Notes under the pieces: generated by a model
Database searches by the model: none
Told to the model about the DNA's origin: nothing
What the model saw: the letters and a program-made list of their open reading frames with translations, nothing else
Program-made: the position numbers and the translations under genes
Source of the DNA: an uncultured Clostridia bacterium
Lineage (GTDB): Bacteria; Bacillota; Clostridia; TANB77; CAG-508
Length of the DNA: 64,000 nucleotides
Assembly: GCA_944391835.1 (NCBI GenBank)
Contig: CALXVA010000001.1
Span: forward strand, 3,897 to 67,896
Reading direction: 5' to 3'
Shown: positions 5,915 to 52,472 of the stretch, piece by piece
Numbering within the stretch: position 1 is the first letter of the stretch
Layout of the letters: each line of letters opens with the position of its first letter

Positions 5915-5931
5915 ATAATTTCCTCTTTTTT

Positions 5932-6138: not shown

Positions 6139-7119
6139 TTAATAGTTATAAAGTCCTGAGAATATTGTCGATATATCAAAAGGTACTATTGTTTCTGGTG
6201 CACCATAATCAATTCCATATGTTTCTACTCTTATGCTCGTTATAACAGGCTCTTCTTTTGGTGTATCAGATGCTATTGTTTCACCATCTTCATCCTCTGG
6301 TGCTTCAAAATCCTCATCTACTTCGGTATCTCTATAGTACACCTCCACATTTGCTACTTTTTCTACTACATCCATACCCTCTATTACTTTTCCAAATGGT
6401 GCATATAGTCCATCTAAATCTGTATTATCTGCTGACATTATAAAGAATTGGCACCCTGCTGAATTATATCCTTCTGCTGCATATCCATATGTGCTATAGT
6501 CACTTCTTGCCATAGATATAACTCCTTCTTCATGTTTTATATTATTGTCATTATCTCCATTAGCTATAAATTCTCCTACAATGTTATATTCAGTATTTAG
6601 AAAATCGTCAAACTCTGAATTTACACTTGCATTTTCTTCGTTTTCGTGCTCTTTTTCAAATTCCTTTTTATATTTTTGGAAATCAGAATAAGAATTTATA
6701 GTTGTATTATCGTTTGTAGTATATTCTCCATCATAAAACTCATTCAAAATTTTCTCAAATAATTCCTTATTATTTAAAACTTCGTCTAAATCATATATAT
6801 CGCTAAGTTTAGGAGATGCTGTAGTATCTCCATCTTTTGCCCCTCCCTGTATAACAAAGTCTGGCATTGTTCTATGGAAAGTAGATCCATCATAAAATTC
6901 TCTGTTTGCTAATCTAATAAAATTAGCTACTGTATTTGGTGCTTTATCAGGATATAATTCTACTTTAATTGTTCCATAATCTTCTATTTCTATAGTAGCT
7001 ACTGGATTTGGTATATTCATTGTATATTTTTTATATACTCCGTAACTAGCAAATGCTATACCTACTATAACTAAAATAATTCCTAATATTAATAAAATTC
7101 TAACTAATGTTTTATTCAT
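6139..7119 (-). CDS. cyclophilin-type peptidyl-prolyl cis-trans isomerase with N-terminal TM anchor and acidic insert
   Basis: motifs FHRTMPDFVIQGG and GYAAEGYNSAGCQFFI are typical of cyclophilin PPIases; N-terminal TM helix. Confidence 0.7.
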   Translation of the reverse strand: MNKTLVRILLILGIILVIVGIAFASYGVYKKYTMNIPNPVATIEIEDYGTIKVELYPDKAPNTVANFIRLANREFYDGSTFHRTMPDFVIQGGAKDGDTTASPKLSDIYDLDEVLNNKELFEKILNEFYDGEYTTNDNTTINSYSDFQKYKKEFEKEHENEENASVNSEFDDFLNTEYNIVGEFIANGDNDNNIKHEEGVISMARSDYSTYGYAAEGYNSAGCQFFIMSADNTDLDGLYAPFGKVIEGMDVVEKVANVEVYYRDTEVDEDFEAPEDEDGETIASDTPKEEPVITSIRVETYGIDYGAPETIVPFDISTIFSGLYNY

Positions 7120-7135
7120 CTTTCTATTCCTCTCT

Positions 7136-8200
7136 TTACATTATTAAATTATCAAATACAAATTGTTCTTGCATTCTTTTTAAGGATTGCTTAATAGTCC
7201 TTGCTCTAATTTCTCCTATTCCATCTACTTCATCAAGTTTTGGAATATCTGCAACCAATATGTGTTGGAATGATTTAAAAGTTTTTACTAAGTTTTCCAC
7301 TATAGTGCTTGGCATTCTTGGTATTTTATTTAATATTCTATAACCTCTGGTGTATACACCAACTTCATCATAATTGTCAAAATCCTCATAACCTAATAAA
7401 TTAGCTATTTTATCTGGTTTTATAAGATTCTCATACACAATGTTTTTAAGTTCTAATAGAATTTTTTCTGCATTTCTTTTCTTACCAGGTGCAATATAGT
7501 CTTTAATAATCAAAAGTTCCTCTTTTTCTAAGTCTCCAACAGTTTCATCTAGTTGCATTTCTAATAATCTGCCCTCTTCGCCTAATTCATCTATCGCTCG
7601 TTCAACCTCAGTTGCAATTTTCATTACTAATTCAGCCCTTTGTATTACTGTAATTACATTTTCTAATGTTACAATATCATTAAATTCATATTCATTAAGT
7701 ATATTTATTTTATTATCAAATACTTTCTTATATTTTTCTACAATTTGTAAAGCTTGATTAGCTTTTGAAATAACATCTGCAGAATTTCTTAGCACATATC
7801 TTTCATTTCCTCTAAATAAAGTTATTATACCTCTTCTTTGCGATATACTTATTACTAGAGACCCCGTTTGTTTTGCTGTACGCTCTGCAGTTCTATGTCT
7901 CGTACCAGTTTCTGTTGTATAAATTTCAGGCGATGGTATTAATTGAGTATTCGCATACAAAATTTTCTTAAAATCAGAACTTAATATAATAGCCCCATCC
8001 ATTTTAGCGAGCTCATACAACTTAGCTGGGCTAAAATCTACGTCCAATTTAAAACCACCATCTACCAGCTTTAGAACTTCCTCATTATCTGCTATTGCTA
8101 TCAAAGCCCCTGTTTTGGCATTTAGAATATTCTCTAGTCCATTTCTAATTGGAGTACCAGGTGCTATTAGCTTTAAAACCTCTTCAATTCCTTCTGCCAC
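7136..8200 (-). CDS. disA: DNA integrity scanning protein DisA (DAC domain plus C-terminal HhH)
   Basis: IAPGTPIRNGLENIL...DGAIILSSDFKKILYANTQLIP...TGTRHRTAERTAKQTG is collinear with B. subtilis DisA; ORF-track start 8257 is a GTG reading through a REP element, and the likely true start is the GTG at 8200 after AAAGGAG. Confidence 0.85.
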   Translation of the reverse strand: MAEGIEEVLKLIAPGTPIRNGLENILNAKTGALIAIADNEEVLKLVDGGFKLDVDFSPAKLYELAKMDGAIILSSDFKKILYANTQLIPSPEIYTTETGTRHRTAERTAKQTGSLVISISQRRGIITLFRGNERYVLRNSADVISKANQALQIVEKYKKVFDNKINILNEYEFNDIVTLENVITVIQRAELVMKIATEVERAIDELGEEGRLLEMQLDETVGDLEKEELLIIKDYIAPGKKRNAEKILLELKNIVYENLIKPDKIANLLGYEDFDNYDEVGVYTRGYRILNKIPRMPSTIVENLVKTFKSFQHILVADIPKLDEVDGIGEIRARTIKQSLKRMQEQFVFDNLIM

Positions 8201-8227
8201 TGTAAATTTCACTCCTTTTGTCACCTT

Positions 8228-8270
8228 AGTGCCTGTCACAAAAGTGCCATTTGGCACTTTCAGGGACAGG
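8228..8270. repeat. REP-like element family 1 (nested hairpin CCTGTCAC / GTGCCATTTGGCAC / GGGACAGG)
   Basis: palindrome GTGCCATTTGGCAC flanked by CCTGTCAC and GGACAGG; same architecture at 9653, 10696 and 42004. Confidence 0.8.
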
Positions 8271-8271
8271 T

Positions 8272-9645
8272 TTACCTTAACTGCAATCCCTTTATTGCCT
8301 CATTTATATTTCTGACACCTATTATATCTAATTTATAATTTTCTTTCAAGAGTTTTTTGTTACTTTCTGGTATAATACATTTTTTAAATCCTAATTTTTC
8401 TGATTCCTTTATTCTTTTTTCTATCATATTTACTGCACGAACTTCTCCTGTTAGACCAACTTCACCTATTGCTACAACATCTTGTGGTATGCTAATATTC
8501 CTAAAGCTAGATGTACATGCTAATATAATGCCCAAGTCTACAGCAGGCTCTGCTAATTTTATTCCACTTACAACATTTAAATATACATCTTGTCCTCCTA
8601 AGTTTATGCCTGCCCTTTTTTCTACAACAGCAATTAGAACAGCTAATCTGTTAAAATCTATTCCATTTGCAGTTCTTTTTGGTATTCCAAATACACTTGG
8701 TGTAGTTAATGCCTGTAGTTCAACCAAAAGTGGTCTTGTTCCCTCCATACTAGCTACAATTACCGAGCCAGCAGGATTGTCGTTTCGCTCTGAAATAAGA
8801 ATTGATGATGGATTTGTAATTTCTACCATACCTTCATTTTTCATTTCAAACATTCCTACTTCATTTGTTGAGCCAAATCTATTTTTTACACTTCTTAATA
8901 TTCTGTATGAAAAATATCTTTCTCCCTCTAAGTATAGAACTGTATCTACCATGTGCTCCAATACTCTAGGTCCTGCTATATTTCCATCCTTTGTAACATG
9001 ACCGATTATTATTGTAGTAATTCCATTATCCTTGCACATTCTCATAATTCTTGAAGTAATTTCTCTAACCTGGCTAACAGTACCTGCAGCTGAAGTAATC
9101 TCTTCTGAATACATTGTTTGAATAGAATCTATAATAACAAGTTTCGGATTTACAGACATTATTGTTTCTTGAATATTATCAATATTTGTTTCACCTAAAA
9201 ATAATAAATCATCATTATTAATGTTCAGTCTATCAGCTCTAATCTTTACCTGTTCTGCCGATTCCTCTCCAGAAACGTATAAAACTTTTCCATCGCCTTT
9301 GACCTTATCGCAAAGTTGTAAAATTAAAGTAGACTTACCAATTCCAGGCTCTCCTCCTACTAGCACAAGTGAACCTTTAACCAAGCCTCCTCCCAAGACT
9401 CTATCTAACTCACCTATACCAGTGCTTGTCCTTGCCATTTCTATTCCTTCTACCTCTTTTAACTTACGAGGCATACTTCTCTCTTTGTTTGCACTACTCT
9501 TTCCCCCAGATGTACTTGAGGTATTTGCAACCTTTTCCTCATAAAAACTATTCCACTCATTACATGCTGGACACTTTCCTAGCCATTTTGCAGATTCATA
9601 TCCACAATTACTACACACAAAAATCGTTTTTGCTTTTGCCATCAT
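8272..9645 (-). CDS. radA: DNA repair protein RadA (Sms)
   Basis: zinc finger CSNCGYESAKWLGKCPAC, Walker A GGEPGIGKST, KNRFG motif, Lon-like C-terminus; true start probably MMAKAK after AAGGAGG (track start 9660 is a GTG). Confidence 0.9.
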   Translation of the reverse strand: MMAKAKTIFVCSNCGYESAKWLGKCPACNEWNSFYEEKVANTSSTSGGKSSANKERSMPRKLKEVEGIEMARTSTGIGELDRVLGGGLVKGSLVLVGGEPGIGKSTLILQLCDKVKGDGKVLYVSGEESAEQVKIRADRLNINNDDLLFLGETNIDNIQETIMSVNPKLVIIDSIQTMYSEEITSAAGTVSQVREITSRIMRMCKDNGITTIIIGHVTKDGNIAGPRVLEHMVDTVLYLEGERYFSYRILRSVKNRFGSTNEVGMFEMKNEGMVEITNPSSILISERNDNPAGSVIVASMEGTRPLLVELQALTTPSVFGIPKRTANGIDFNRLAVLIAVVEKRAGINLGGQDVYLNVVSGIKLAEPAVDLGIILACTSSFRNISIPQDVVAIGEVGLTGEVRAVNMIEKRIKESEKLGFKKCIIPESNKKLLKENYKLDIIGVRNINEAIKGLQLR

Positions 9646-9652
9646 TTCCTCC

Positions 9653-9706
9653 TTTGGCACTTAAGTGCCTGTCACCGAAGTGCCATTTGGCACTTTTGGG
9701 GACAGG
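9653..9706. repeat. REP-like element family 1 (with extra GGCAC-TTAA-GTGCC hairpin)
   Basis: tttGGCACttaaGTGCCTGTCACCgaaGTGCCATTTGGCACttttGGGGACAGG. Confidence 0.8.
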
Positions 9707-9712
9707 TTCACT

Positions 9713-10507
9713 TTATTTTTTATTGTTTTCTATTATCCTCATAATTGTTCTTTTACTAATTCCTAATAGCCTAACTATCTGCTCTGTCTGAATTCCTTCA
9801 ATTTGAGTTATTTTATAAATATATTTATTTCTAGTCTCTTTACTATATAATAAAATCTCTAGCAGATTCTCCACTCCGATAACTGTTTTTATATATTGTA
9901 TTGCATCTTCGTCACTCAATTCTCCCTCAGTTTCTAATTCTATTTTCAAGTATTCTTTATTATCAATCTCAGCATTATATTTTATAAACTGTTTTAATGC
10001 TTCTTCCTTAACGTCTCCAAATAGGCTAAGTATAAAATCCGTATCTGTTATGCCAAAATCTTTTTGTCCGATGTATTCTTGGTAACTACTCCATTCATAT
10101 ACATCTATGCTACTCATTTTTGCCTTACATGGATTATTATGTATATATCTTATTAAATTAAATAAGTATTTATCATCATTTACACTAATACTTCTATATC
10201 TATCTTGAAATAAATGTCCGACTCTATTATATTCCTTATTAAAATACTTAGCATATGAAGAACATAATTTATGCATTATTTTAGACATTCTATCATTTTC
10301 ATCATATATTACAAAGTGTACGTGATTAGTCATTAAAACAAAAAGATACACCCTAAAACTGTATTCTTCTTTTGTTTTCTTCAATAGATTTATAAATTTT
10401 TTTCTATCATTTTCGCATGTAAATATATCTTGCTTATTATTTCCTCTAATAATTATATGATATGTTTTAGTAATAGTTTTTAAATTTTCTCGTGCTATAC
10501 GGGGCAT
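9713..10507 (-). mobile_element. IS200/IS605-like Y1 (HuH) transposase with C-terminal DnaA-like HTH; RayT-like REP-associated tyrosine transposase candidate
   Basis: HuH motif LMTNHVHFVI and downstream conserved Tyr region (RYIHNNP); C-terminal HTH (LLGISKRTIMRIIENN); start MPRIAREN at 10507 after AAAGGAG; REP-like elements within ~200 bp on both sides. Confidence 0.7.
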
Positions 10508-10695
10508 TATTTTTTCTCCTTTCATTGTTTTTTATTAGTTTATTTTAGAATATTAAAATCACATTTAACCCCTATATCATATTTTTATTTGAACATAAGC
10601 CACATTAAAAATATAGCACATTTTTTATAAATATGCTATATTTTTCACTAAATATTTACAATTTATTATGTTATCTATACTGTCTAATTGCTCAA

Positions 10696-10746
10696 CCTGT
10701 CCCTAAAGGTGCCAAATGGCACTTTGGTGACAGGCACTAAAGTGCC
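10696..10746. repeat. REP-like element family 1 (inverted orientation relative to 9653 copy)
   Basis: CCTGTCCCtaaagGTGCCAAATGGCACtttgGTGACAGGCACtaaaGTGCC. Confidence 0.8.
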
Positions 10747-12674
10747 AAAATGAACATTGCGTGTGACCATGCAAGACCTATTACCCAATTTGGTTGCATT
10801 GTGTGGTTGTCTATTTGTTCTCCTAAAAATCCATGCTTATTACTGCTATTTATTATAAAATCTATACATTCTTGTGCTTTTTTCTTTTCACCTATTTCTT
10901 TGTAGTACATTGCCATCCATAATGTTGAAATTGCCCAAGGGCTATTTCCTCCTCTATAGTGGTCTCCTTCAAATCTTAGATAGCCTCCTGTGTATGTTCT
11001 AAGTCTCATGTTTATTTTTTCTATTGTGTTGGTTATTTTCTTTTCGTTTGGTTTGTACATTTTAAATGGTACTACTGTTCCTAATACGCTTATGTCTGTT
11101 ACTTCGTCGTTTGTGTTTCTTTTTAATGTTTTTGTGTTTTCGTTATACATATTCGCTTTTATGTATTTGTCCATTTCTTTTTTATAAAAGTCTATCTTTT
11201 TACTTAATTTATTTATGCTTTCTAGTTTTAATCTATTTTTTTCTTCGTATTCTGGTTTTAGAATTTCATACATTTCTAGAATTGCATTAAATGCTGAGTA
11301 GATGCTTGCAAGTGAATATAAATGTACTCCTTCATGCATCTCCCACAAATCATAGCTTACTGGTAGCTTGTTTCTTTCTTCTGTGTGATATGTTTTTTCT
11401 ATTTCATTTTTTACTATATCGCTATCATCATGTAATCCTAAAATGTTGTCCATATATATGCACAAGAATTTTACTGCGCTCTCACACATTTTTAGCATAT
11501 CTTTTAAGAATTTTTTGTCCTTTGTAACTTTATAATGTTCATATGCACCATATACTACTCCTGCTGTTTCGTCTATTTGATATCCCCAGCAAGGTGCTAA
11601 ACGTCCGTCTGTGTAGAATCTTTGTTCCCACATTCCATTTCTGCTTTGTGTGTTTTTGCAAAATACTTTGTAGAATCTTTCTGTTTCTTTATTCATTTTT
11701 AACTTATCGAATGCTCTTGTTATAAATACTGCATCACGTGGCCAACAATATCCATATCTACCACATTGGGTTAGATTTTCATCTACTTCTACTGCTGCTG
11801 CAACTCCTCCTGTTTCTTTGTTTGTTAGCAGTGGAAATAGCAATATGCTCCTTTTATATACCTTATTAAATTTTTTATTATACTCACTATTTTCTTCTTT
11901 TAGTTCTATATTGATATGTTCTTTTACATATTTTTTCCAATATTTTTGTACTGAACTTTGTTCTGCTTCTACGTCTTGCTTTCTAATATTTTCTATGTTC
12001 TTCCACATTTCCTCTGCATTAACTTTATCGTTTTCTAGAATGTATAAATATATAACAAGTTCTTTAGTTTCACCTGGTTTGATAACTCCAAGTTCATAAT
12101 TTATGCTAGAGTCTGAACTCATACCTATATAGTCTTTATCATGTATTACACCACTTTCTATGTTATTGTCTGTATCGTTTAACTGATGTGCATTTATATT
12201 CTTTTTAGAAAACATACACAATGTGTTATTATGACTATATTGCATTAACACATTGTTTTCTATTTTCGAGCCTACCATATTGTTTGGATTTGATAATAGT
12301 TTTGAGTGTACTAAAAAGTTTACATTCAAATCTATTGAGTTGTTATTTTTGAATATATATCTTTTTATCAAAACACTATTTTTCATAGATACAAAATCTA
12401 TTTGCTTAATTTGCAAATTAAAATATGTGTTTTCTATTTCGGTGTTTAATATATTTGTATCTTCTGTATAATACTGATTGTATCTATTGTTTTGGTCTTG
12501 ATGTAAATAAATTATGCAAGAGTCATTTATTTTGACTCCTGTATGAAAAAAATCTAAAAATTGTTTAAAGTCTGGTGTATTGTACATTAACCTTAGCATT
12601 TCACCATGATATGTGAAGCTTGCAGTTATATCTTTTCCTCCAATTATTGCATCATTAAAATACTTGTTTTTCAT
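10737..12674 (-). CDS. glycoside hydrolase family 15 (glucoamylase/glucodextranase-like) protein
   Basis: GH15 hallmarks GYCWPRDAVFITRAF and catalytic-region SYDLWEMHEG; likely start MKNKYF at 12674 after AGGAGAG; the last codons (ILAL*) are read from the REP element. Confidence 0.65.
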   Translation of the reverse strand: MKNKYFNDAIIGGKDITASFTYHGEMLRLMYNTPDFKQFLDFFHTGVKINDSCIIYLHQDQNNRYNQYYTEDTNILNTEIENTYFNLQIKQIDFVSMKNSVLIKRYIFKNNNSIDLNVNFLVHSKLLSNPNNMVGSKIENNVLMQYSHNNTLCMFSKKNINAHQLNDTDNNIESGVIHDKDYIGMSSDSSINYELGVIKPGETKELVIYLYILENDKVNAEEMWKNIENIRKQDVEAEQSSVQKYWKKYVKEHINIELKEENSEYNKKFNKVYKRSILLFPLLTNKETGGVAAAVEVDENLTQCGRYGYCWPRDAVFITRAFDKLKMNKETERFYKVFCKNTQSRNGMWEQRFYTDGRLAPCWGYQIDETAGVVYGAYEHYKVTKDKKFLKDMLKMCESAVKFLCIYMDNILGLHDDSDIVKNEIEKTYHTEERNKLPVSYDLWEMHEGVHLYSLASIYSAFNAILEMYEILKPEYEEKNRLKLESINKLSKKIDFYKKEMDKYIKANMYNENTKTLKRNTNDEVTDISVLGTVVPFKMYKPNEKKITNTIEKINMRLRTYTGGYLRFEGDHYRGGNSPWAISTLWMAMYYKEIGEKKKAQECIDFIINSSNKHGFLGEQIDNHTMQPNWVIGLAWSHAMFILAL

Positions 12675-18743: not shown

Positions 18744-18776
18744 CGTGGACAAAAAGGAGTGTCCCCTTTGTCCACG
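18744..18776. repeat. REP-like element family 2 (GTGGACAAA..GGAGTGTCCCC..TTTGTCCAC hairpin)
   Basis: cGTGGACAAAAAGGAGTGTCCCCTTTGTCCACg; other copies at 27328, 32119, 32194, 35998, 36076. Confidence 0.8.
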
Positions 18777-18784
18777 TCTGCTAT

Positions 18785-27327: not shown

Positions 27328-27358
27328 GTGTGTGGACAAAAGGGTCACTCCAATTTGT
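27328..27358. repeat. REP-like element family 2 abutting the tRNA 5' end
   Basis: GTGGACAAAAGGGTCACTCCAATTTGTCCAC. Confidence 0.75.
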
Positions 27359-27420
27359 CCACAAAATTTTTTTTAAATGATTTCTAAAGTCTGTGCATAT
27401 TCGAAGACGAAATGCCTTTC

Positions 27421-28975
<1,555 letters not shown>

Positions 28976-28980
<5 letters not shown>

Positions 28981-29782
28981 TGTGTTTTAAAATCTGACTC
29001 CTTACACTATTCCTCTGCTCTTCAATTTGCTCCACATAAGTTTTTGGTTTACTTGATTTGTCATCTTTGGCTTTTAGCAAATTTTTAAGTTTTTTCTTTT
29101 CTTTTATTTTATATGTATAGTGCTGTTCAGCAAAATTATTTTTAGCTTGCCTTTCTATCTTCTGCATTTCTGTTTCAGGAATGTACTCCTGTTCTTTTCT
29201 TTCCCTATTATAGTCAACTATTTTTTTAACTGGATTTTTATATATTGCTTCTGAATATTTTTCTATGTCCGGTCTAAAATATATGGTCTCATTTACATAG
29301 TTTCTTATAAGCTTTCTCTCCTTACGTGTAAATGCCTCGTCTGGTAATCCTAAGTTGTTATATTTCCATATAATATGCCTATCCATATTAGAATATTTTT
29401 TATAATTAATTTTTTCGTAATTATATTCTATTTCAAATTTTAAACCTTCTATTCTTACTGTTACACTTGTCCATAATCTATGCTTCTCTTTTTTAAATAT
29501 TTCCCATATTTTTTTTATTTGAGTATATAATTTTCCTACTAGTTTTATGTATTCTTCTTCATTTAAGCTAAATTTATTTGGTATTTCATAAACATTTACA
29601 GGATTCTTTTTTAAGATTCCTCGTGGAAAATAATAAAAGAATAATTCTCCTGTTTCTATTCCCTCCATTTTCTCTTCTACAGAAGCATATAAGTATATTC
29701 TATCCCATTTTTCTGGTATTAGATAAAATAATTGTTTCTGTAATTCAGAGTATACCTTTCTTATCTCTGAATTTTGTATCAT
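28976..29782 (-). CDS. DUF600 (YezG/EsaG-type) immunity-protein homologue with ~110-aa C-terminal extension, inserted between gpmI and eno
   Basis: collinear with staphylococcal DUF600 proteins: IPEKWDRIYLYASV, FFYYFPRG, VYEIPNKF, LYTQIKKIWEIFKKEKHRLWTSVTVRIEGLKFEIEYNY, WKYNNLGLPDE. Confidence 0.7.
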
Positions 29783-29804: not shown

Positions 29805-31334
29805 TTATTTTACTATAATACTCTCTCCTGTCATCTCCTCTGGTTTTTCTAATCCCATTAGTTCTAACATTGTTGGAGCTAAATCTGCAAGTTTTCCTTC
29901 TTTTAATTTTGCGTCATCTTTTCCTACTAGTATAAGTGGTACTGGGTTAGTAGTATGTGCTGTATGTGGCTCTCCTGTTTTATAATCTAACATTTGCTCG
30001 CAATTACCATGATCAGCTGTAATTAACATTACACCATCATTTTTTCTTATTGCTTCTACCACTTTTCCCACACATTCATCTATTGTTTCTACTGCCTTAA
30101 CTGCAGCTTCTAAGTTTCCTGTATGTCCTACCATATCTGGGTTAGCATAATTTAGAATTATGCAATCATATTTTTTTGAGTTAATTGCTTCTAATACTTT
30201 GTCTGTTACTTCGTATGCACTCATTTCTGGCTTTAGGTCATATGTTTCAACTTTTGGTGATGGAACTAATATTCTATCTTCTCCTGGATATTGCTTTTCT
30301 TCTCCTCCATTAAAGAAAAATGTAACATGTGCATATTTCTCTGTTTCTGCTATTCTTAGTTGTGTTAAACCTTTTTGGCTTATATATTCTCCAAAAGTAT
30401 TTTTTAATGTTTCTGGTTTGAATGCTATTTTTACATTTGGCATTGTTTCGTCATATTGTGTGAAACATACATAATCCAAATCCATTTTTTTAGTTTCGAA
30501 TTCATTAAAGTCTTTATCTACTATTGCTCTTGTTAATTCTCTTGCTCTGTCTGGTCTAAAGTTAAAGAATATTACAGAATCATTTTCTTCTATTTTTGCT
30601 ATTGGCTCGTTGTTTTGGCATATTACAGTTGGCTCAACAAATTCATCAAATACCTCTTTTTGATATGAACTTTCTATAGCTGTTATTGCTGATGTAGCTT
30701 TAATGCCTTCTCCATTTACTATTGCATCATATGCTTTTTGAACTCTATTCCATCTTTTATCTCTATCCATTGCATAGAATCTACCAGAGATACTTGCAAT
30801 TTTTCCTACACCTTTTTCTTTCATTTTTTCTTCAAGATTCATTATATAGCTTTCTCCTGAAGTAGGTGGTGTATCTCTTCCATCCATAAAACAATGTACA
30901 TATACATTTTCAAAATCTTTTCTCTTAGCAAGTTCCAATATTGCATATAAATGACGATTATGACTATGTACTCCACCATCTGATAATAATCCTAAAATGT
31001 GTAATTTAGAATTATGTTTTTTACAATTTTCTATTGCTTCTACTAATTCTGGATTACTAAAAAAATCTCCATCTTCTATAGATTTTGTTATTCTTGTTAG
31101 TTCTTGATATACAATTCTTCCTGCTCCAATATTAGTATGTCCAACTTCAGAATTTCCCATTTGTCCATCTGGCAAACCAACATTTAATCCACTAGTATAC
31201 ATTTTTGTAGTTGGGCATGTTTTCATTAGTTTATCTATATTAGGTGTATTTGCAATTGCTACAGCATTTGCCTGTGTGTTTTCGTTTATTCCAAATCCAT
31301 CTAATATCATTAACATTGTAACTTTTTTGTCCAT
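29805..31334 (-). CDS. gpmI: 2,3-bisphosphoglycerate-independent phosphoglycerate mutase
   Basis: N-terminus VTMLMILDGFGINENT; SDGGVHSH; HGNCEQM. Confidence 0.95.
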   Translation of the reverse strand: MDKKVTMLMILDGFGINENTQANAVAIANTPNIDKLMKTCPTTKMYTSGLNVGLPDGQMGNSEVGHTNIGAGRIVYQELTRITKSIEDGDFFSNPELVEAIENCKKHNSKLHILGLLSDGGVHSHNRHLYAILELAKRKDFENVYVHCFMDGRDTPPTSGESYIMNLEEKMKEKGVGKIASISGRFYAMDRDKRWNRVQKAYDAIVNGEGIKATSAITAIESSYQKEVFDEFVEPTVICQNNEPIAKIEENDSVIFFNFRPDRARELTRAIVDKDFNEFETKKMDLDYVCFTQYDETMPNVKIAFKPETLKNTFGEYISQKGLTQLRIAETEKYAHVTFFFNGGEEKQYPGEDRILVPSPKVETYDLKPEMSAYEVTDKVLEAINSKKYDCIILNYANPDMVGHTGNLEAAVKAVETIDECVGKVVEAIRKNDGVMLITADHGNCEQMLDYKTGEPHTAHTTNPVPLILVGKDDAKLKEGKLADLAPTMLELMGLEKPEEMTGESIIVK

Positions 31335-31348: not shown

Positions 31349-32098
31349 CTAATTATAATTTACAATCTTCGCAAATTCTTCTGATTTTAAACTTGCTCCT
31401 CCTACTAGTCCTCCGTCTATGTCGGACATAGTAAATAGTTCTTTGGCATTTGAAGCTTTTACACTTCCGCCATATTGTATTATAACTCTTTTTGCTACCA
31501 TTTGTCCATACATATTTGATATTTTATTTCTTATTGACTTTATAGCATTGTTTGCATCTTCTGATGTGGCTGTTTTTCCTGTTCCTATTGCCCAAATTGG
31601 TTCATACGCAATTATAGTATCAGCTACTTGTTCATCTGTTAATCCCTCAAGCGCTTTTTCAGTTTGAGAAGTTATAATTTCTTCCGCTTTCCCAGCTTCT
31701 CTTTCTTCTAGTGTTTCGCCCACACATACAATAGGCTTTAATCCATATTTGAATGCTGCCTTCAATTTTTTGTTTACAGTCTCATCTGTTTCTGCAAAAT
31801 ACTGTCTTCTTTCAGAATGCCCTATTATTACATATTCTACTCCTATAGCTTTTAGCATTTGTCCAGAAACTTCTCCCGTATACGCACCACTTTCTTCCCA
31901 GTGCATATTTTGTGCACCTATTTTGATATTTGTGTTTTGTGCTGTAAGTAACGCATAAAACAAATCTGTATAAGGCACACATAGTATTACTTCGCTTTCT
32001 GTGTCTTTTACAAGAGGTGTTAATTCATCTATAAATCTTATAGCAGCATCAGGTAGCATATTCATTTTCCAGTTTCCTGCAATCACTTTTTTTCTCAT
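31349..32098 (-). CDS. tpiA: triosephosphate isomerase
   Basis: MRKKVIAGNWKMN, IIGHSERR, AYEPIWAIGTG; true start ATG 32098 after AGGAGAG; the track ORF (to 32164) reads through an upstream REP-2 copy. Confidence 0.95.
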   Translation of the reverse strand: MRKKVIAGNWKMNMLPDAAIRFIDELTPLVKDTESEVILCVPYTDLFYALLTAQNTNIKIGAQNMHWEESGAYTGEVSGQMLKAIGVEYVIIGHSERRQYFAETDETVNKKLKAAFKYGLKPIVCVGETLEEREAGKAEEIITSQTEKALEGLTDEQVADTIIAYEPIWAIGTGKTATSEDANNAIKSIRNKISNMYGQMVAKRVIIQYGGSVKASNAKELFTMSDIDGGLVGGASLKSEEFAKIVNYN

Positions 32099-32118
32099 AA
32101 AATTCTCTCCTAACAAAA

Positions 32119-32225
32119 CGTGGACAAAGGGGACTACTGCCTTTTGTCCACGCTTTAATACCATTATATTATTTATATAAATTTTCTATCTTTGTGGACA
32201 AATAGGAGTGTCCCCTTTGTCCACG
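32119..32225. repeat. pair of REP-like family 2 hairpins (32119-32152 and 32194-32225) in the tpiA-pgk junction
   Basis: cGTGGACAAAGGGGACTACTGCCTTTTGTCCACg and GTGGACAAATAGGAGTGTCCCCTTTGTCCACg, opposite loop orientations, separated by an AT-rich ~40 bp. Confidence 0.8.
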
Positions 32226-33502
32226 TCCATAGCTTTACCTTCTTTTTTTTCTTTTTCTGGTTTATCAGTTAAGCATGAAATTCCTGGTAATACTTTACCC
32301 TCTAATAGTTCAAGTGAAGCTCCTCCACCTGTTGAAATATGAGAAAAGTTATCCTCTAAATGTAACTTTTTAATTGCTGCTACAGAGTCTCCTCCACCTA
32401 CTATAGATATAGATTTTGTAGCTGCTATTGCCTCTGCAACTTTTTCTGTTCCTATACTAAACTTTTCTACTTCGCATATTCCAAGTGGTCCATTCCAAAG
32501 AATAGTCTTTTTGTCTTGTAATTCGTTTGCAAATGTTCTAGCTGTTTTTGGTCCAATATCGCATCCTTGCCATCCAGCTGGAATTTCGTTTGAATTTACA
32601 ACTTTATCTGGAGCTGTTTCTAAGAAGCTTATAAATGCTTTTTGTTTTGCTTTTTTGTCTAATTCTTCTTCTGGCTCTGGTTGTTTTGGTGCTACAACAG
32701 TATCTTCTGGAAGAACTATTTTTACACCTGCAAGTTTTGCCTTATTCATTATTTTTTTAGCTTCTTCTATTTTATCTTCTTCGCATAATGAATCTCCAAT
32801 TTCATGTCCTTGTGCTTTTAAGAATGTATATGCCATTCCTCCACCAATTAAGATTTCGTCTACTTTATCAAGTAAGTTTTCTATAACTCCTATTTTATCA
32901 GATACTTTTGCTCCACCTAGTATTGCTACAAATGGTTTTTCTGGATCCTCTAGAGTTCCATTTAAGAACTTAACTTCTTTTTCCATTAAAAATCCTTCTA
33001 CTGCTTCATCTACATGATGAGCTACACCCTCTGTAGAGCTATGTGCTCTATGTGCTGCTCCAAAAGCATCATTTACATAGATTCCATCTGAAAGATTTGC
33101 AAGTTCCATCGCCATTGTATCATCATTTTGTTCTTCTCTTGGGTCAAATCTAACGTTTTCTAATAGGGCAACATCACCATCAGTTAGGCTATTGGTAACA
33201 CTTTTTGCACTTTCTCCTGTAACATCACTTGCAAATTTAACATCTGTATCTAGTAAATCTTTTAATTCTTCTGCTACTGGTTTTAAAGAATATTCTTCTT
33301 TAACTTCTCCCTTTGGTCTTCCTAAGTGTGAGCATAGTATAACTTTTGCTCCATTATCTCTTAAATATTCTATTGTTGGAAGTGCAGCTGTTATTCTTGT
33401 GTTATCTGTTATTTTTCCATCTTTTAAAGGTACATTAAAATCACATCTTACTAGCACTTTTTTTCCTTTAACATCAACATCTCTTACTGTTTTCTTATTC
33501 AT
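32186..33502 (-). CDS. pgk: phosphoglycerate kinase (C-terminus extended ~40 aa by read-through into a REP-2 copy)
   Basis: N-terminus VRDVDVKGKKVLVRCDFNVPL; the usual end ...LEGKVLPGISCLTDK is followed by PEKEKKEGKAMDVDKGDTPICPQR, whose MDVDKGDTPICP is the translation of GTGGACAAAGGGGACACTCCTATTTGTCCAC. Confidence 0.9.
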   Translation of the reverse strand: MNKKTVRDVDVKGKKVLVRCDFNVPLKDGKITDNTRITAALPTIEYLRDNGAKVILCSHLGRPKGEVKEEYSLKPVAEELKDLLDTDVKFASDVTGESAKSVTNSLTDGDVALLENVRFDPREEQNDDTMAMELANLSDGIYVNDAFGAAHRAHSSTEGVAHHVDEAVEGFLMEKEVKFLNGTLEDPEKPFVAILGGAKVSDKIGVIENLLDKVDEILIGGGMAYTFLKAQGHEIGDSLCEEDKIEEAKKIMNKAKLAGVKIVLPEDTVVAPKQPEPEEELDKKAKQKAFISFLETAPDKVVNSNEIPAGWQGCDIGPKTARTFANELQDKKTILWNGPLGICEVEKFSIGTEKVAEAIAATKSISIVGGGDSVAAIKKLHLEDNFSHISTGGGASLELLEGKVLPGISCLTDKPEKEKKEGKAMDVDKGDTPICPQR

Positions 33503-33528
33503 TAATAATCATCCTTTCTATATTTATA

Positions 33529-33716
33529 GAGGCTAGGATAATATTTAAAATATTCGAGAATATGGAATGGAATGTGATTTGAACATACTAATTCTTAAGA
33601 AATTTTTGTAGGGAATCTCGAATTTTTTGAGGGCGCTGCAAAAATTTCGTTAGAATTAGTGTAAAAATCAGCTTGACCGACATATTCGAAAATATTTTTA
33701 ATATTATTCTAGCCTC
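33529..33716. repeat. MITE-like element with ~35-bp terminal inverted repeats between pgk and gap
   Basis: left gaggctaggataatatttaaaatattcgagaatat vs right atattcgaaaatatttttaatattattctagcctc; internal ctcgaattttttgagggcgctgcaaaaatttcg hairpin resembles the family 3 core. Confidence 0.7.
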
Positions 33717-33747
33717 TACTTTATTCCAAACAAAATTACTACAATCT

Positions 33748-34791
<1,044 letters not shown>

Positions 34792-34925: not shown

Positions 34926-35183
34926 TTATAATTCAATATTATCTGTAATTTTAATTTCTTTAAATAAAAAGTTTTTTACCTTTTCTCCAGTTATTTCATA
35001 GAATAAGAAATCATGAACTTTTTCTCCTGTAATTTCTTGTGTCCAAAAGTCATGTACTTCTTGAAAAACTTTTTCTTGCTTTGGTGTTAATTCAAGAGCT
35101 ATATCTTGGCATAAGAAATTTCTTATTTTAGTCCATACACTTACTTCTGTTGGTAAATTGTTTGAATTTACACGATTATCCAT
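34926..35183 (-). CDS. hypothetical 85-aa protein with tandem 14-aa repeat (EITGEKVHDFLFY/EITGEKVKNFLFK)
   Basis: strong RBS AAGGAGGA; occupies the position upstream of gap where cggR usually lies. Confidence 0.45.
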   Translation of the reverse strand: MDNRVNSNNLPTEVSVWTKIRNFLCQDIALELTPKQEKVFQEVHDFWTQEITGEKVHDFLFYEITGEKVKNFLFKEIKITDNIEL

Positions 35184-35997: not shown

Positions 35998-36107
35998 TGT
36001 GGACAAGAGGGACACTCCTTTTTATCCACACTTTAAATTTTTACATGATTTACTATTTATGATAGTGTAGTGACTGTGGGCAAGAAGGAGTGTCCCTCTT
36101 GTCCACG
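35998..36107. repeat. pair of REP-like family 2 hairpins (35998-36030 and 36076-36107)
   Basis: GTGGACAAGAGGGACACTCCTTTTTATCCAC and GTGGGCAAGAAGGAGTGTCCCTCTTGTCCAC with complementary loops. Confidence 0.75.
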
Positions 36108-36112
36108 ATTCA

Positions 36113-38101
36113 TTACTCAGTAATTTCAGCTTGTTCTACTTGGCTTCCTTGTTCTACTTTGTATTCTTTTATTACATTTCCAAGCTCATCAGCAAAATCT
36201 TGAAGTATAACTAATTTTATTGTTGGTTGTTTTCCATCTATATAATCATCCATTACTTGTTTTAATTTTTTCAAATTTGGTAATTCATCTTGCAACTTTT
36301 CCCCAAATCTTTTTGCTCTATCCATAAGTTTTTCTTTTATAGTTACTATATCTTCGTTACTAGCACATGAGATTCTTTGGAACATTTGAAATACATCGTA
36401 ATATCTAAATATTGGAACCTGCATGCATTCCTTATCAAATTTGTCATAGAATTGTTCCATTTTCATTGGTATATATTTAAATATTTCTTCTGCCTTTTCT
36501 TTGTACATTTTGTCTTCAAGCTGTGCATTAATATTATTAAAGTGGTTTAAAATTTCTTCCATATCTTCCGATTTATCTTCTTCTATCGCTAAACTTGCAA
36601 GTTCCTCTTCTACGTTAGGGCAATAGCTTGAAGTTAATGAAGATATATTCATTCCATTTAAGAAAACGCTTTTTATTGTTCTCATATCATAATCTATAAG
36701 ACTTTTTCTTACAAAGTGAGCAAAATATGCAAATAGTTTTACTACGTTTATAAGCTCTATGCGTCCATTTTTTACGTCATCCAACACTTCAGTTACTACT
36801 CCACTAAATTGATCATCAGATATTTTCCAATACTCTTCTGTAAGAAGTCTCTTATAACCTGGTAATTTATCCGTGTCAACAGTATTTATTATGGCCTCCA
36901 TATCTCTTTTAAATACTTTCATGTCAAATATACGTGTACGCACATATAGTTCTATAAATTTGAAGAATCTATATTCAGCTTTAAAGTTATAGTAGTAGTT
37001 ATTATCAAATTCTTTAATATAGAATTGCCTGTTATCCATAAATACTCTTGAAGAAACAAGTATAGCTTTGTATTCTTCGTTGTCATTAATATTTACAAAT
37101 TTGTCTTTTGTAATTTTACCTGCCTTAATTTCAAAAGATATAGCAATTGTAAATATTAGCATTGTTTGCAATACTCTATGATTTGTATTTGGATATGATT
37201 TATTAACTTCATCAAAAATTTTCTTAAAATTAGTTAATGAATGTTTTAGAATTCTTAAATTTCTAGTTCCACTCTTATTAAATGTAGAAATAATAAGGTT
37301 GGTATTTTCTCTTAAGAATCTAATTAAGTCTGGACAATTTTCATATCTCATTAAAAGTCCGTTTATTATATACGTAAATTCTGGTGCATACTCAAAGGTT
37401 TCACCAATTAACTTTTCTTTAATTCTTTCATAGTCGTTTGCTTTATCAAAAACATATTCAATAGTATCACGAATTCTCTCAACCATTGGCTTGTCTGTTT
37501 TTATATTAAGCTTATTTTCCTTGTCTAAAAGATATGTTGCTATAAATGTTTTCATTTCTAGGTTACTATTTTTTAGTTTTGTAGATAGTTCTTTTTCATT
37601 ACATATAATTATTGTTTTTATGTGGTCATGTTCAACAAAATTATTAATATAACCTAAAATATCAATAACATCCACATTTGCTCTTTCCAAATCATCAAAG
37701 CATAAAACTTTATCGTCTGTAGAAAAGAATTGACCATAATCTATTCTATCTCCATTTTGTGTAACACCAAAAAAGTTTGCCATATCAAGACCTGTTTTAG
37801 CATATTCTGGTATGTTTTTTACTCCACTTGCGTCCATAAACTTTTTTAAGTTTTTATCCATAAGTTGAGTTGTCTCAATAAATATTTTTTTACTTATTTC
37901 TTCTAGGTTTGATATACCATATAATGACATATATATTGCAGTATATCTTTTTCCATTTAATTGCATTGATTCTATTTTTGGCCTTATTTTATTATTCCAA
38001 AAATAGGTTTTTCCACTTCCCCATTCACCATTTATCATTATGGCATAATCTGTATAGTCTGATCTTATATAGTCTAAAATACTCTCAACTAAATCTTCCA
38101 T
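36113..38101 (-). CDS. KAP-family P-loop NTPase
   Basis: N-terminal Walker A INGEWGSGKTYFW and Walker B-like LCFDDLERANVD in KAP arrangement, then long helical region; flanked by REP-2 pairs. Confidence 0.65.
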   Translation of the reverse strand: MEDLVESILDYIRSDYTDYAIMINGEWGSGKTYFWNNKIRPKIESMQLNGKRYTAIYMSLYGISNLEEISKKIFIETTQLMDKNLKKFMDASGVKNIPEYAKTGLDMANFFGVTQNGDRIDYGQFFSTDDKVLCFDDLERANVDVIDILGYINNFVEHDHIKTIIICNEKELSTKLKNSNLEMKTFIATYLLDKENKLNIKTDKPMVERIRDTIEYVFDKANDYERIKEKLIGETFEYAPEFTYIINGLLMRYENCPDLIRFLRENTNLIISTFNKSGTRNLRILKHSLTNFKKIFDEVNKSYPNTNHRVLQTMLIFTIAISFEIKAGKITKDKFVNINDNEEYKAILVSSRVFMDNRQFYIKEFDNNYYYNFKAEYRFFKFIELYVRTRIFDMKVFKRDMEAIINTVDTDKLPGYKRLLTEEYWKISDDQFSGVVTEVLDDVKNGRIELINVVKLFAYFAHFVRKSLIDYDMRTIKSVFLNGMNISSLTSSYCPNVEEELASLAIEEDKSEDMEEILNHFNNINAQLEDKMYKEKAEEIFKYIPMKMEQFYDKFDKECMQVPIFRYYDVFQMFQRISCASNEDIVTIKEKLMDRAKRFGEKLQDELPNLKKLKQVMDDYIDGKQPTIKLVILQDFADELGNVIKEYKVEQGSQVEQAEITE

Positions 38102-38924: not shown

Positions 38925-41413
38925 TTACATATTCATCATCTTAAATGCTAATCCTGTATTTCTTTTTTTGTTATCATTATTATTTATCATAAAGTCTATT
39001 ATGTTTTTACTGCCTATAATAATTAGTAATTTCTTTGCTCTAGTCATACCAGTATAAAGTAAATTTCTTGTAAGTAGCATTGGTGCAGTTTGTGAAATAG
39101 GCATTATTACTACATCAAATTCACTTCCGTTGTGCTTTATGAACAGTAATAGCGTATGCATGCTCTATTTGTTCTAACTCACTATATTGATACCATACCT
39201 GTTTATCATCATCAAATTTAATTTTAACTTGCTTATTAAAGTCATCTATTTTTTCTATCGTTCCAAATTCACCGTTGAACACGCCACTTCCACTTTCAAA
39301 AAGCGGTTCTTTACGCTCCCAATATATATCGTAATTGTTTTTAACTTGCATTATTCTATCGCCTTCTCTAAAAAGGCTATCTCCAAATTTTTTCTCTTTT
39401 TTAGATTCTGATAGCGGATTTACAGTACCTTGTAATAATTTATTTAATTCTTTTGTTCCTAAATCGCCTTTTTTAGTTGGAGTTATAATTTGTATATTCT
39501 TAAAGAAATCATAATCGCCATAGTTTTTTAGCCTTTCTCCACTTAAAGATAAAACATTATATAAAATTTTGTCTTTTTGAGTTTCATTTACAAAAAAGAA
39601 ATCTTCAAGAAATAAATTATTCTTTATATTTTCACTATCTTCTTGTCTCTTTTTACTTGTGCTTTCTGTATTTTTTAGGTTATTTACAGTAATACTTTTA
39701 TCAATAATTTCTGGTAATGTATTATCTAAATTTTCTTCATTATTACTATTTTCTATCTCTTCTTTTGTTATAAATCCTTTTCCCTCATTTACTCTATGTG
39801 CGTTTACTATAATTTTGCTTTTAGCAGCTTGTCTAAATATTTTGTTTAACCTAATTGTAGTTATCTTTTCAGATTCAATAATATCTTTTAGAACATTCCC
39901 TGGACCAACTGATGGTAGCTGATCAATATCACCTACTAAAACTAGTTTAGTTCCTTTGTATAAAGCTTTACACAAATAATTCATCAAAAACAAATCTACC
40001 ATCGACATTTCATCTACAATTACTATGTCTCCATCAATAGGTGCAACTGAAATATCTGAATTTATTCCCTGTGTTTCATCCGAAATCTTTCCTATTTCTA
40101 GCAATCTATGTAAAGTACTTGCCTCGTTTCCAGTTGCTTCTGTCATCTTCTTAGCAGCTCTTCCCGTTGGAGCACAAAGTACAGGCTTCATTTCACTATG
40201 CTTAAATATATCTATTATAGTTTTTATTATTGTAGTTTTACCAGTACCAGGTCCGTCCAGTTATAACACAAACATTATTATCATTTATTGCACTTATCGC
40301 TTCTATTTGTTTTTCAGATAGTTCTATGCTAGACTTTTTTTCGAATAATTCTAGTTCTTTATCAAATCTGTCTATTTTTTTTATATTTTTATATTTATCT
40401 AATTCAATTAAACGTCTTGCTACATTTGCTTCTGCCTCATAGTATTGATATAAATATACCCATTCCTCTCCATCTCTTTCTTCAAGTACAATGTCTTCTT
40501 TTGCTTTTAAATTGATAATAGAATCCTCTATATCATTCTCGCTAACCCCAAGTAACTTTTTAACAAATTCAACTAACCCTTCATATCTAGTACAACAATG
40601 ACCATTATATGTCATAAGAATTAAAGCATGTTTAATCCCACTTCTAATTCTTTTTTCATTATTATATTCGAACCCTAAATTAAGAGCCATCTTATCAATT
40701 TGCTCAAAATTAACTTTATTTACCAAATCAACTAAAATATATGGATTACTTTCTATCTCTTCCATTGCATTTACTCCAAGTGCCTTATAAATCTTCTCTG
40801 CATTTTGTGGTCCTATTCCAAACTTGTCTAAAAAACCGACAAGTTGCCAAACTTCCCAGTTTTCTATAAATGTATTTGCTATTTCTATTGCTCTATCTTT
40901 TGTTATCCCCTTAATTTGTGCTAACTTAGCTGGCTCAAACTTAAACACATTTAAAGTATCCTCTCCAAAAGTTTCAACAATATTTCTTGCAGTTGCAGGT
41001 CCAATACCTTTAATTCCACAATTTGCTAGGTAACGTTCTAGCGCCTTTGTAGTTTGAGGCATCATTTTCTCAAAAGTATCTACCTTAAATTGTAGACCAT
41101 ACTCTTGGTGTTCTACAAATTTTCCCATAGCTTTAAGAGTATCTCCAATATTTACAAATGGTAGATACCCTACTATAGTCATTTCTTCGTCCAGATCATC
41201 TATTTCATTAAACTCTTCAGTAATTCCAATTTGATCAGCCATTTCTTTTTTATTTTTTTTAATTATATCTTTATCTAATTTTAGAACAGCTATACAGTAG
41301 CTATTCAAATCATTTTTGTAAATTATTTCAATAACTTCACCTTGTAATTCCAATGTGTATACCTTCTTTTTTGTCATGTTTGGGGACAGGCTCTTTTGCG
41401 ACAAGCTTGTCAT
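38925..41413 (-). pseudogene. recD2: RecD2-like ATP-dependent DNA helicase interrupted by two +1 frameshifts (three ORF pieces)
   Basis: pieces 40238-41413 (HhH N-domain, ends VITGRTWYW*), 39121-40191 (KPVLCAPTGRAAKKM ... AYAITVHKAQRK*) and 38925-39161 (GSEFDVVIMP ... YTGMTRAKK); the shifted frame restores GPGTGKTT and HKAQGSEFD; both lesions are an extra C before GGA. Confidence 0.75.
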
Positions 41414-41851: not shown

Positions 41852-42003
41852 TATATTACCTCCAACTTATATTTGTTATATGATTTATTTAATTTACTAC
41901 AATCAAATGATTATTGGTTATAATATAATATGTATTACTGTTAATTTTAGTTAATCGTATATTAAATACTTTCCTCTCGAAAAGCAACACTATTTTCCTT
42001 AGA

Positions 42004-42054
42004 CCTGTCACCAGAAGTGCCAAATGGCACTTTTGTGACAGGCACCTGAGTGCC
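42004..42054. repeat. REP-like element family 1
   Basis: CCTGTCACCagaaGTGCCAAATGGCACttttGTGACAGGCACctgaGTGCC. Confidence 0.8.
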
Positions 42055-42109
42055 AAAAAAAGAAGCAACGTAATTGTTGCCCCCTAAATTTCATTCATCT
42101 TTTTTTATT

Positions 42110-44801: not shown

Positions 44802-44929
44802 TTTAGTTTTTCCTCCTTTTTAGAATTATTACTATTATGTAAAACTTTTTATTTTTTTATTTTAGAAAACTAATTTTCTTTTTATTCTTTGGTTACAAAA
44901 CAAATCAAAAGCTATTTTATTCTTTCATT

Positions 44930-45180
44930 TGCTTTCATAATTCGAATTAGAAGCGCATCGCTTATAATCAGAATTTCAAAACAAATCAAAAACTATTTTA
45001 TTCTTTCATTTGCTTTCATAATTCGAATTAGAAGCGCATCGCTATAATCAGAATTTCAAAACAAATCAAAAGCAAGTAGTGCTAGGAAAGCTAGCTAAAA
45101 TTTTTGAGATTATACGTATTGTATATCGAAAAAATTTTATGCGACGCTTGACAACGCAATACGAAGCTTTTCATTTGTTT
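44930..45180. repeat. MITE-like family 3 copy (45068-45180) preceded by a tandem duplication of a ~63-bp unit carrying empty TIR pairs (44936-45066)
   Basis: caaaacaaatcaaaagcaagtagtgctaggaaagctagct...ttgacaacgcaatacgaagcttttcatttgttttg with TIR caaaacaaat[c/g]aaaag; upstream ttcgaattagaagcgcatcgct(t)ataatcagaatttcaaaacaaatcaaaaactattttattctttcatttgctttcataa twice. Confidence 0.8.
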
Positions 45181-50730: not shown

Positions 50731-50785
50731 TTTAAAATCTCCTTTCTAACTAAAAGATTTTGCTCTTAGTTTATTTTAGATTATA

Positions 50786-50906
50786 TGTTTAAGTCAAAAG
50801 CGAGTATTGCTAGGCGAACGAATAAAAATTTTTGAGATTGTACGGGGTGTACATCGAAAAAATTTTTATGAAGTTCAACAACGCAAGACGAAGCTTTTCA
50901 TTTAAA
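50786..50906. repeat. MITE-like family 3 copy (rplR-rplF spacer)
   Basis: gtcaaaagcgagtattgctaggcgaacgaataaaaatttttgagattgtacggggtgtacatcgaaaaaatttttatgaagttcaacaacgcaagacgaagcttttcattt. Confidence 0.85.
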
Positions 50907-52280: not shown

Positions 52281-52351
52281 TTTATTCTCCTTTCCCCAAT
52301 TTTTATATAAAATATTATTTCATTTTTATTTATTTTCTATTGATTGTAAAA

Positions 52352-52472
52352 TTAATCAAAAGCGAGTATTGCTAGGAAAGCTAGCAAAAAAGTTTGAAAT
52401 AATACTTTGTGTATATTGAGAACTTTTTTGCGACGCTTAGGCACGCTAAGTACGAAACTTTTCATTAATTTT
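52352..52472. repeat. MITE-like family 3 copy (rpsN-rplE spacer) with gctag-gaaa-gctagc sub-hairpin
   Basis: aattaatcaaaagcgagtattgctaggaaagctagcaaaaaagtttgaaataatactttgtgtatattgagaacttttttgcgacgcttaggcacgctaagtacgaaacttttcattaatt. Confidence 0.85.

Follow-up and report, generated by a model that had tools for sequence, protein, structure and literature searches.

A long-form DUF600/EsaG-like protein encoded directly after phosphoglycerate mutase in uncultured gut Clostridia

Proteins of the DUF600 family have so far been known, and annotated, only as immunity proteins against nuclease toxins of type VII secretion systems (T7SS). Why, then, is one of them encoded among the genes of glycolysis? 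The question is raised by a stretch of 64 kb from an uncultured Clostridia bacterium (contig CALXVA010000001.1 of assembly GCA_944391835.1), hereafter the window, in which an open reading frame (ORF) on the minus strand, here called X (gene and protein alike), lies between gpmI, the gene for cofactor-independent phosphoglycerate mutase (iPGM), and eno, the gene for enolase. An earlier note on this DNA took X for an orphan immunity gene that had been inserted into a core metabolic operon. However, a relative of X is found at the same position in 65/65 species-level genomes that carry one, so that this reading is refuted. With a probability of roughly 0.55, X is a long-form DUF600 member outside the context of toxins and immunity: a fixed, single-copy, vertically inherited partner of gpmI, whose product binds an endogenous protein, most probably GpmI.

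A DUF600 gene fixed after gpmI

The family assignment made in the earlier note is borne out by sequence and by predicted fold. Residues 8-150 of X match the Pfam profile PF04634 (YezG-like/DUF600) with an E value of 1e-25 and 91.1 bits, against a cut-off of 21.7. The note had also named the NCBIfam profile TIGR01741 (subfamily staph_tand_hypo); here the score is 56.7 bits, under the cut-off of 82.05. These are the sole matches of X in Pfam and in NCBIfam, and a PADLOC scan of X gave no match. A profile built from 69 orthologues matches EsaG of Staphylococcus aureus (8GUO; E 1.3e-10, residues 5-165) and, weakly, BH3703 of Bacillus halodurans (E 0.02-0.03), a DUF600 protein of unknown function from structural genomics (PDB 2IA1, 3I0T). 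In the AlphaFold2 (AF2) model, X is predicted to have the α/β fold of EsaG and BH3703, i.e., a four-stranded sheet sandwiched by helices; Foldseek aligns the model with EsaG (8guo_A) at E 5.8e-10 and a target template modelling (TM) score of 0.80, and with BH3703 (2ia1/3i0t) at E 2e-8 to 4e-7 and a target TM score of ~0.70. BH3703 is thus like X in fold, but differs in its weak sequence match and in having no long tail.

The operon in which X lies comprises the following features:

28976..29782, minus strand: X, long-form DUF600/YezG/EsaG-like coding sequence, ATG start, 268 amino acids (aa) and stop codon
29788..29792, minus strand: GGAGG, ribosome-binding site of X as read from the sequence, 5 nucleotides (nt) before the ATG and within the 22-nt gpmI-X spacer
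29805..31334, minus strand: gpmI, iPGM of 509 aa (ORF; Pfam Metalloenzyme and iPGM_N on orthologues)
27421..28722, minus strand: eno, enolase of 433 aa, the downstream neighbour of X (ORF)
31349..34749, minus strand: upstream part of the operon (gap, pgk and tpi; ORFs, the gene order being shared by relatives)
33748-34749, minus strand: gap
32186-33502, minus strand: pgk
31349-32164, minus strand: tpi as listed; the part homologous to tpi begins at 32101

On the minus strand the order is spoVT, an ORF of 85 aa, gap, pgk, tpi, gpmI, X, eno, a tRNA gene and mutL. X begins 22 nt after the stop codon of gpmI and ends 253 nt before eno, which agrees with the position between gpmI and eno given in the earlier note. 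A consensus scan of the operon for promoters and terminators found no excess over shuffled sequence, nor any promoter- or terminator-like site on the coding strand of the X-eno spacer; there is therefore no evidence of a separate transcription unit for X or for eno, and X has the look of a gene internal to the glycolytic operon.

How constant is this arrangement? Loci were gathered by searching for X in one genome per species of the GTDB, which yielded 65 loci carrying a relative, all in metagenome-assembled genomes (MAGs) of uncultured gut Clostridia; the samples came from humans, chickens, rabbits, mice and ruminants, and Clostridium sp. CAG:273 and Candidatus Merdicola (Clostridia incertae sedis at NCBI) are among the genomes. 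In all 65 the gene immediately upstream of X is gpmI, mostly 2-36 nt away. Enolase is encoded immediately downstream in ~50 of the 65 and is absent from that place in 13, of which at least 8 have an unrelated conserved gene pair after X (in L050, L051, L069, L071 and L072, at ~5700-7600, a protein of ~230 aa beginning MIYSKEVEEMC and one of ~333 aa beginning MA.TFE.YERRI). Identity to the proteins of the window ranges from 42 to 93% for X, from 77 to 98% for GpmI and from 80 to 100% for enolase. By tblastn of the window and the loci, X is present once per locus. A seemingly truncated X in L074 was rejected as such: a single frameshift is followed by an intact continuation that includes the C-terminal motif.

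The same picture was obtained from metagenomes. When 5.8 billion proteins were searched, 1344 matched, and over 100 of these are homologues of full length (~265-270 aa) with 93% to 54% identity; three of these (86%, 71% and 54% identity) lie between gpmI and eno, after gap-pgk-tpi, on every contig, and gpmI is directly 5' of X at 9/9 metagenome places. The earlier note had itself held that conservation of the gene at this junction would refute an insertion, and it is this conservation, down to metagenomic contigs with 54% identity, that is found across the family.

Further relatives came from a HMMER search of 1.84 billion cluster representatives, which gave 362 family members. Long forms (~190-360 aa among full-length matches) rank at the top, and short forms (~160 aa) follow at E 1e-15 to 1e-20. 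The contexts of seven distant long forms, 31-38% identical to X and from DNA of 20-30% GC, were examined; X follows gpmI in 5/7 and tpi in 2/7:

L078: tpi-gpmI-X
L081: cdaA...gpmI-X, 8-nt gap, no other glycolytic gene
L083: gpmI-X-Y-NfeD-Band7, 4-nt gap
L082: C-terminus of gpmI, then X
L077: C-terminus of gpmI, then X
L075: tpi-X, 12-nt gap
L080: tpi-X, 12-nt gap

GpmI of L078, L081, L082 and L083 is 27-38% identical to that of the window. Thus, gpmI and X have stayed together in differing operons and beside a diverged GpmI, so the conserved unit is the pair and not the operon. Split ORFs in L075, L080 and L083 are frameshifts; an alternative genetic code was considered for them and rejected.

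In subfamily B, to which distant long forms belong, the five loci that are fully resolved all have, directly 3' of X, a gene for a membrane protein that is conserved but uncharacterised and is here called Y:

L075:6020-6508: Y
L078:6012-6626: Y
L081:6009-6503: Y
L082:1191-1739: Y
L083:2310-2753: Y

Y has 147-204 aa, an N-terminal transmembrane helix and the motif ...KVP..LWE[ED]; pairwise identities are 35-57% (E 6e-24 to 1e-41). It has no Pfam match, and no homologue was found in the window or in the loci of subfamily A, which comprises the close relatives.

The nearest short relatives present a different situation. Both of the short DUF600 proteins that were looked up have the classical arrangement of a toxin partner: P0218 (164 aa) comes after an ORF that encodes an Endonuclea_NS_2 domain (E 3e-41) and overlaps its stop codon, and P0230 (162 aa) lies in a string of ~160-aa genes after a 504-aa Endonuclea_NS_2 toxin, i.e., a tandem array. 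In a neighbour-joining tree of 168 shared domain columns with 100 bootstraps, in which the short forms included EsaG, long and short forms are split in 100/100 bootstraps. The long-form branch is therefore monophyletic on these domain sequences, with a single origin of the long gpmI-linked proteins within the family; within it, subfamily B is supported by 98 and subfamily A by 52.

Nothing of a conflict system was found around X. All ORFs of at least 100 aa in the window were read, Pfam was run on the ten that could not be recognised by eye, and the Endonuclea_NS_2 toxin domain was sought by tblastn. In agreement with the earlier note, the 64-kb window holds no T7SS, LXG, WXG100 or nuclease-toxin gene, nor a second DUF600 copy, and the tblastn search found no match in the window or in the loci. 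The window is mainly housekeeping in content (ribosomal protein operons, secY, adk, radA, disA, ftsK, mutL, miaA). Where a toxin–immunity module would have an Endonuclea_NS_2 or LXG toxin gene, directly upstream of X or overlapping it, there is gpmI in 65/65 loci; and in place of tandem non-identical paralogues of variable presence and copy number there is one copy per locus at the same position. X is a PF04634 member by sequence and fold, yet it fails every contextual mark of a toxin–immunity module that was tested.

Architecture and selection

X is 268 aa long, compared with ~160 for EsaG and YezG, and the extra length is arranged in distinct parts:

29288..29782, minus strand: EsaG-like α/β domain, residues 1-165 (EsaG profile match, Foldseek, AF2 confidence)
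29198..29287, minus strand: conserved post-domain segment, residues 166-195 (near-invariant columns; dN/dS 0.00-0.25)
29048..29197, minus strand: charged Lys/Glu-rich linker of variable length, residues 196-245 (low AF2 confidence; highest dN within X)
28976..29047, minus strand: conserved C-terminal helix TY.EQIE.QRN.V[KR]SQIL[KN]H[ILM], residues 246-268 and stop codon

In the AF2 model the mean predicted local distance difference test (pLDDT) is 67; the domain has ~70-90, except for a conserved loop at 56-72, and the tail is low. Past the EsaG-like domain the model predicts a fifth strand at residues 173-179 (pLDDT ~81-83) and helices at 205-218 and 249-267. Pfam run on the tail alone (residues 166-268) gave no significant match. 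The Lys/Glu-rich extension of ~110 aa described in the earlier note corresponds to the last ~103 residues, which hold 25 K+R and 17 D+E.

In the alignments, the long invariant blocks of the domain are QKQLFYLIPEKWD.IYLYAS, GE.FFYY.P.G, NP.N.YE.P and RHIIW. Two further blocks lie beyond it: E.Y.E.IYK.P...Y.E (residues 174-194) and TY.EQIE.QRN.V.SQIL.H at the C-terminus. The former contains the predicted extra β-strand (E.Y[ST]E[AS]IYK.P) and the motif K.I[VL][DE]Y[NE][KR]; its (near-)invariant columns are E174, Y176, E178, I180, Y181, K182, P184, Y191, N192 and E194, and the motif is also present in subfamily B. The near-invariant columns of the C-terminal block are T248, Y249, E251, Q256, R257, S262, Q263, I264, L265 and H267. 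Since the linker varies in length, X ranges from 214 to 292 aa among the 65 orthologues; despite this, the C-terminal ...[KN][SNT]QIL... is kept, also in more distant long forms (NQILNF, NQILKYK, NPILKY). That a short motif is conserved at the C-terminus while the spacer before it varies suggests a docking peptide on a tether.

Selection was estimated as the ratio of non-synonymous to synonymous substitution rates (dN/dS; Nei-Gojobori) between the window and nine relatives. The values are 0.08-0.20 for X, 0.03-0.06 for gpmI, 0.006-0.07 for eno and 0.04-0.12 for tpi. X is under purifying selection, and its domain, post-domain segment, linker and C-terminal helix are each constrained.

To what extent has the toxin-binding surface been kept? 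EsaG inactivates EsaD by insertion into the sheet of the toxin: a strand from the N-terminal fragment of EsaD is caught by the edge strand β4' of EsaG (L110, V112, F114) and by Y11, and the C-terminal fragment is held by αD'/αE' (R129, Y146) and αB'/αC' (K62, Q69, D72, D80) (PMC9616950). In the alignment of the hidden Markov models, Y11 of EsaG corresponds to Y11 of X, L110/V112/F114 to F116/I118/Y120, R129 to R135 and Y146 to F151, all of which are conserved in X, possibly for structural reasons only. The acidic contacts D72 and D80, by contrast, align with I79 and with a variable K/T position. With the hydrophobic positions kept and these acidic contacts not, X plausibly retains a strand-capturing surface for binding protein, though not the EsaD-specific one.

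Possible partners of X and other explanations

The model in which X is a partner of GpmI draws on three things: X has a fixed place beside gpmI, it is under purifying selection, and conserved modules have been added to its domain. X would be co-transcribed with gpmI, probably with translational coupling, and would serve as a module for binding an endogenous protein, most likely the Mn-dependent GpmI, or else enzymes of lower glycolysis. Binding may take place through the surfaces, at the sheet edge and on the helices, with which EsaG holds EsaD; the tail with its C-terminal ...QIL motif would make a second contact in subfamily A, and in subfamily B this contact may be supplied by the separately encoded membrane protein Y. 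The outcome would be regulation, stabilisation or localisation of GpmI. A tentative extension, to which we give somewhat less than even odds, is that the EsaG/YezG immunity fold was exapted into central metabolism, such that the long forms are dedicated iPGM partners (regulators, chaperones or localisation factors) in a wide range of AT-rich uncultured gut Firmicutes, linked onward by the tail and its QIL motif or by Y.

A precedent of a kind exists in cyanobacteria, where a small protein, PirC (Sll0944), inhibits the cofactor-independent phosphoglycerate mutase (PMC8018021). PirC could be seen as analogous to X, as a small dedicated protein that binds and controls an iPGM; unlike X, it is controlled by PII and is not encoded beside the mutase in an operon. 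No relationship of sequence or fold between the two was detected (X matches only PF04634 in Pfam), and the likeness is functional at most.

Several points weigh against a partnership with GpmI. The link of X to GpmI function is drawn wholly from genomic context, and sharing an operon can serve co-expression alone. In L075 and L080, X follows tpi with no intervening gpmI. The 65 loci were gathered by searching for X, so that the count covers carriers of X only, and the relatives are all from MAGs or metagenomes. The tail, to which a second contact is ascribed, is modelled with low confidence. Finally, part of the toxin-binding surface is conserved in X, and immunity to nuclease toxins is the sole experimentally known function of DUF600 proteins (PMC9616950). 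The last two points lead to the main rival explanation, namely that X is a fixed "public" immunity protein, made from a strong constitutive operon against the Endonuclea_NS_2 (EsaD/YeeF-type) toxins of competing gut Firmicutes, with its position after gpmI serving expression only. This would agree with the PF04634 membership and EsaG fold of X, with the conserved hydrophobic residues that align to the EsaD-capturing strand of EsaG, together with R135 and F151, with the genuine toxin partners among its closest short relatives, and with the lack of any toxin near X within the window, as for an orphan. We nevertheless regard it as unlikely. Polymorphic toxins typically have immunity genes whose presence and number of copies vary and which recombine in tandem arrays, as described in a preprint (bioRxiv 10.1101/2022.01.07.475358) and as at the P0230 locus, whereas X is single-copy, syntenic over deep divergence and under purifying selection throughout. 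Immunity proteins have nothing that corresponds to its post-domain segment, its tail or its C-terminal motif; D72 and D80 of EsaG are replaced, as described above; and gpmI and X remain paired where gpmI lies outside a glycolytic operon (L081, L083).

A housekeeping role apart from both GpmI and foreign toxins has also to be considered: X might, e.g., restrain an endogenous ββα-Me nuclease or act as an adaptor, and the operon would provide expression in proportion to growth. Purifying selection and vertical inheritance are in keeping with such a role, as is a fold that is a generic protein-binding platform, and the constant presence of Y directly after X in subfamily B hints at a partner other than GpmI. 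Yet the loci of subfamily A show no candidate endogenous nuclease or other recurrent neighbour, and the sole neighbour constant over both subfamilies is gpmI (tpi in two loci), all of which makes this role improbable. Least of all can it be believed that X is a recent acquisition, an orphan immunity gene that arrived between gpmI and eno with a miniature inverted-repeat transposable element (MITE). A mobile palindromic element does adjoin X, and gpmI and eno are adjacent in model Firmicutes such as Bacillus subtilis; however, 65/65 related species have X in this position, even where identity falls to 42%, and the repeat elements vary apart from the gene, the X-eno site being empty in L001 and filled in L002, which have an identical X. 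Orphan immunity genes and islands of polymorphic toxins do share with X the presence of an immunity-family gene with no cognate toxin nearby, but they vary, often lie in clusters and are often carried on mobile islands, whereas X is a single syntenic core gene.

Returning to X as the partner of gpmI, its nearest known counterparts are EsaG of S. aureus and YezG of Bacillus subtilis, which confer immunity to the T7SS nuclease toxins EsaD and YeeF. X resembles them in profile match, in predicted fold and at several EsaD-contact positions. It differs in its added strand segment, charged linker and C-terminal motif, in being present in a single copy after gpmI, never by a toxin or in tandem arrays, and in forming a separate clade (100/100). 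The branch of X thus departs from the DUF600 norm in architecture, in genomic logic (one copy, fixed after gpmI) and in mode of evolution, and therefore the automatic annotation "immunity protein" is probably misleading for these genomes. No literature linking DUF600/YezG to a glycolytic operon or to phosphoglycerate mutase was found. If the link to GpmI is true, it would be a rare documented recruitment of a protein of interbacterial conflict to housekeeping metabolism, and it would point to a hitherto unrecognised control over the phosphoglycerate mutase step in gut Clostridia that are abundant but uncultured; control of this step at the protein level has so far been documented for cyanobacteria (PirC).

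Repeat elements and small genes in the region

The spacer between X and eno holds two palindromic elements:

28849..28979, no strand assigned: palindromic element 1, ~131 nt, bounded by inverted termini of 30 nt and overlapping X in its stop codon and the codon before that
28792..28850, no strand assigned: palindromic element 2, a hairpin of ~60 nt (inverted repeat); a near-identical block is present in L002 and L010 at the same site

The inverted termini of element 1 (28849-28878 and 28950-28979) are 87% complementary. Four further copies, at 45053-45176, 50781-50903, 52343-52428 and 57499-57621, bring the number in the window to five; the four are all found between genes of the ribosomal protein operons, and their orientation with respect to transcription is the same. 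The X-eno site is filled in L002, L010 and the window. In L001 it is empty, with 24 nt between the genes and the ribosome-binding site of eno right after the stop codon of X, and in L002, with the same X protein, the spacer is 395 nt. Across relatives the spacer is at most 719 nt long and, at the other extreme, gives way to an overlap (-23 nt). The MITE copy of the earlier note is thus upheld in substance, by terminal inverted repeats, dispersed copies and polymorphism for presence and absence. Mobility at this site belongs to the repeat element, which is independent of X in this respect, and not to the gene. Folding of the spacer as RNA gives a pair of long hairpins (-51.3 kcal/mol, z = -5.4) and shows no T-tract of the kind seen in terminators.

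The sole transposase gene in the window, a Y1/IS200-like gene at 9713-10525 on the minus strand (PF01797, E 4e-16), is tied to a different repeat family. It is flanked by palindromes that resemble repetitive extragenic palindromic (REP) sequences and are rich in GTGCC/GGCAC (8217-8279, 9653-9715, 10695-10750, 42003-42058), and together they look like the arrangement of a REP-associated tyrosine transposase (RAYT) with its REP sequences. A further repeat family, a GC-richer hairpin of ~34 nt (GTGGACAAA..GGAGTGTCCCC..TTTGTCCAC), occurs at 3' ends of genes, with copies at 18745-18778, 27332-27365, 32194-32227, 35999-36032 and 36076-36109; the ORF of pgk runs into one of these, which gives it an unusual C-terminal extension "...DTPICPQR" (438 aa). 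At 44893-45043, in the rpsM/rpsK region and just upstream of a copy of element 1, there are two tandem 70-nt copies, 97% identical and 81 nt apart.

X is not the only small gene associated with the operon. The 85-aa ORF between spoVT and gap (34926-35183, minus strand) has an internal repeat, EITGEKVHDFLF / EITGEKVKNFLF; at the same site L001, L004 and L007 have an ORF of 83-91 aa without a Pfam match, and it might serve the operon as a leader or a regulator. A DUF1653 gene of 81 aa lies between gap and pgk in some relatives (L004:1955-2200, L007:2100-2345) and is absent from the window; thus, the glycolytic operon of this clade houses more than one small extra gene. Further along the window, a RecD2-like helicase appears to be split into two consecutive ORFs of 391 and 356 aa (39121-40191 and 40238-41413, minus strand); a frameshift could account for this, or the gene may be a pseudogene. 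A KAP-family P-loop NTPase of 662 aa (36113-38101, minus strand), encoded between spoVT and comF-like genes, matches the PADLOC candidate defence family PDC-S49 (E 2e-78).

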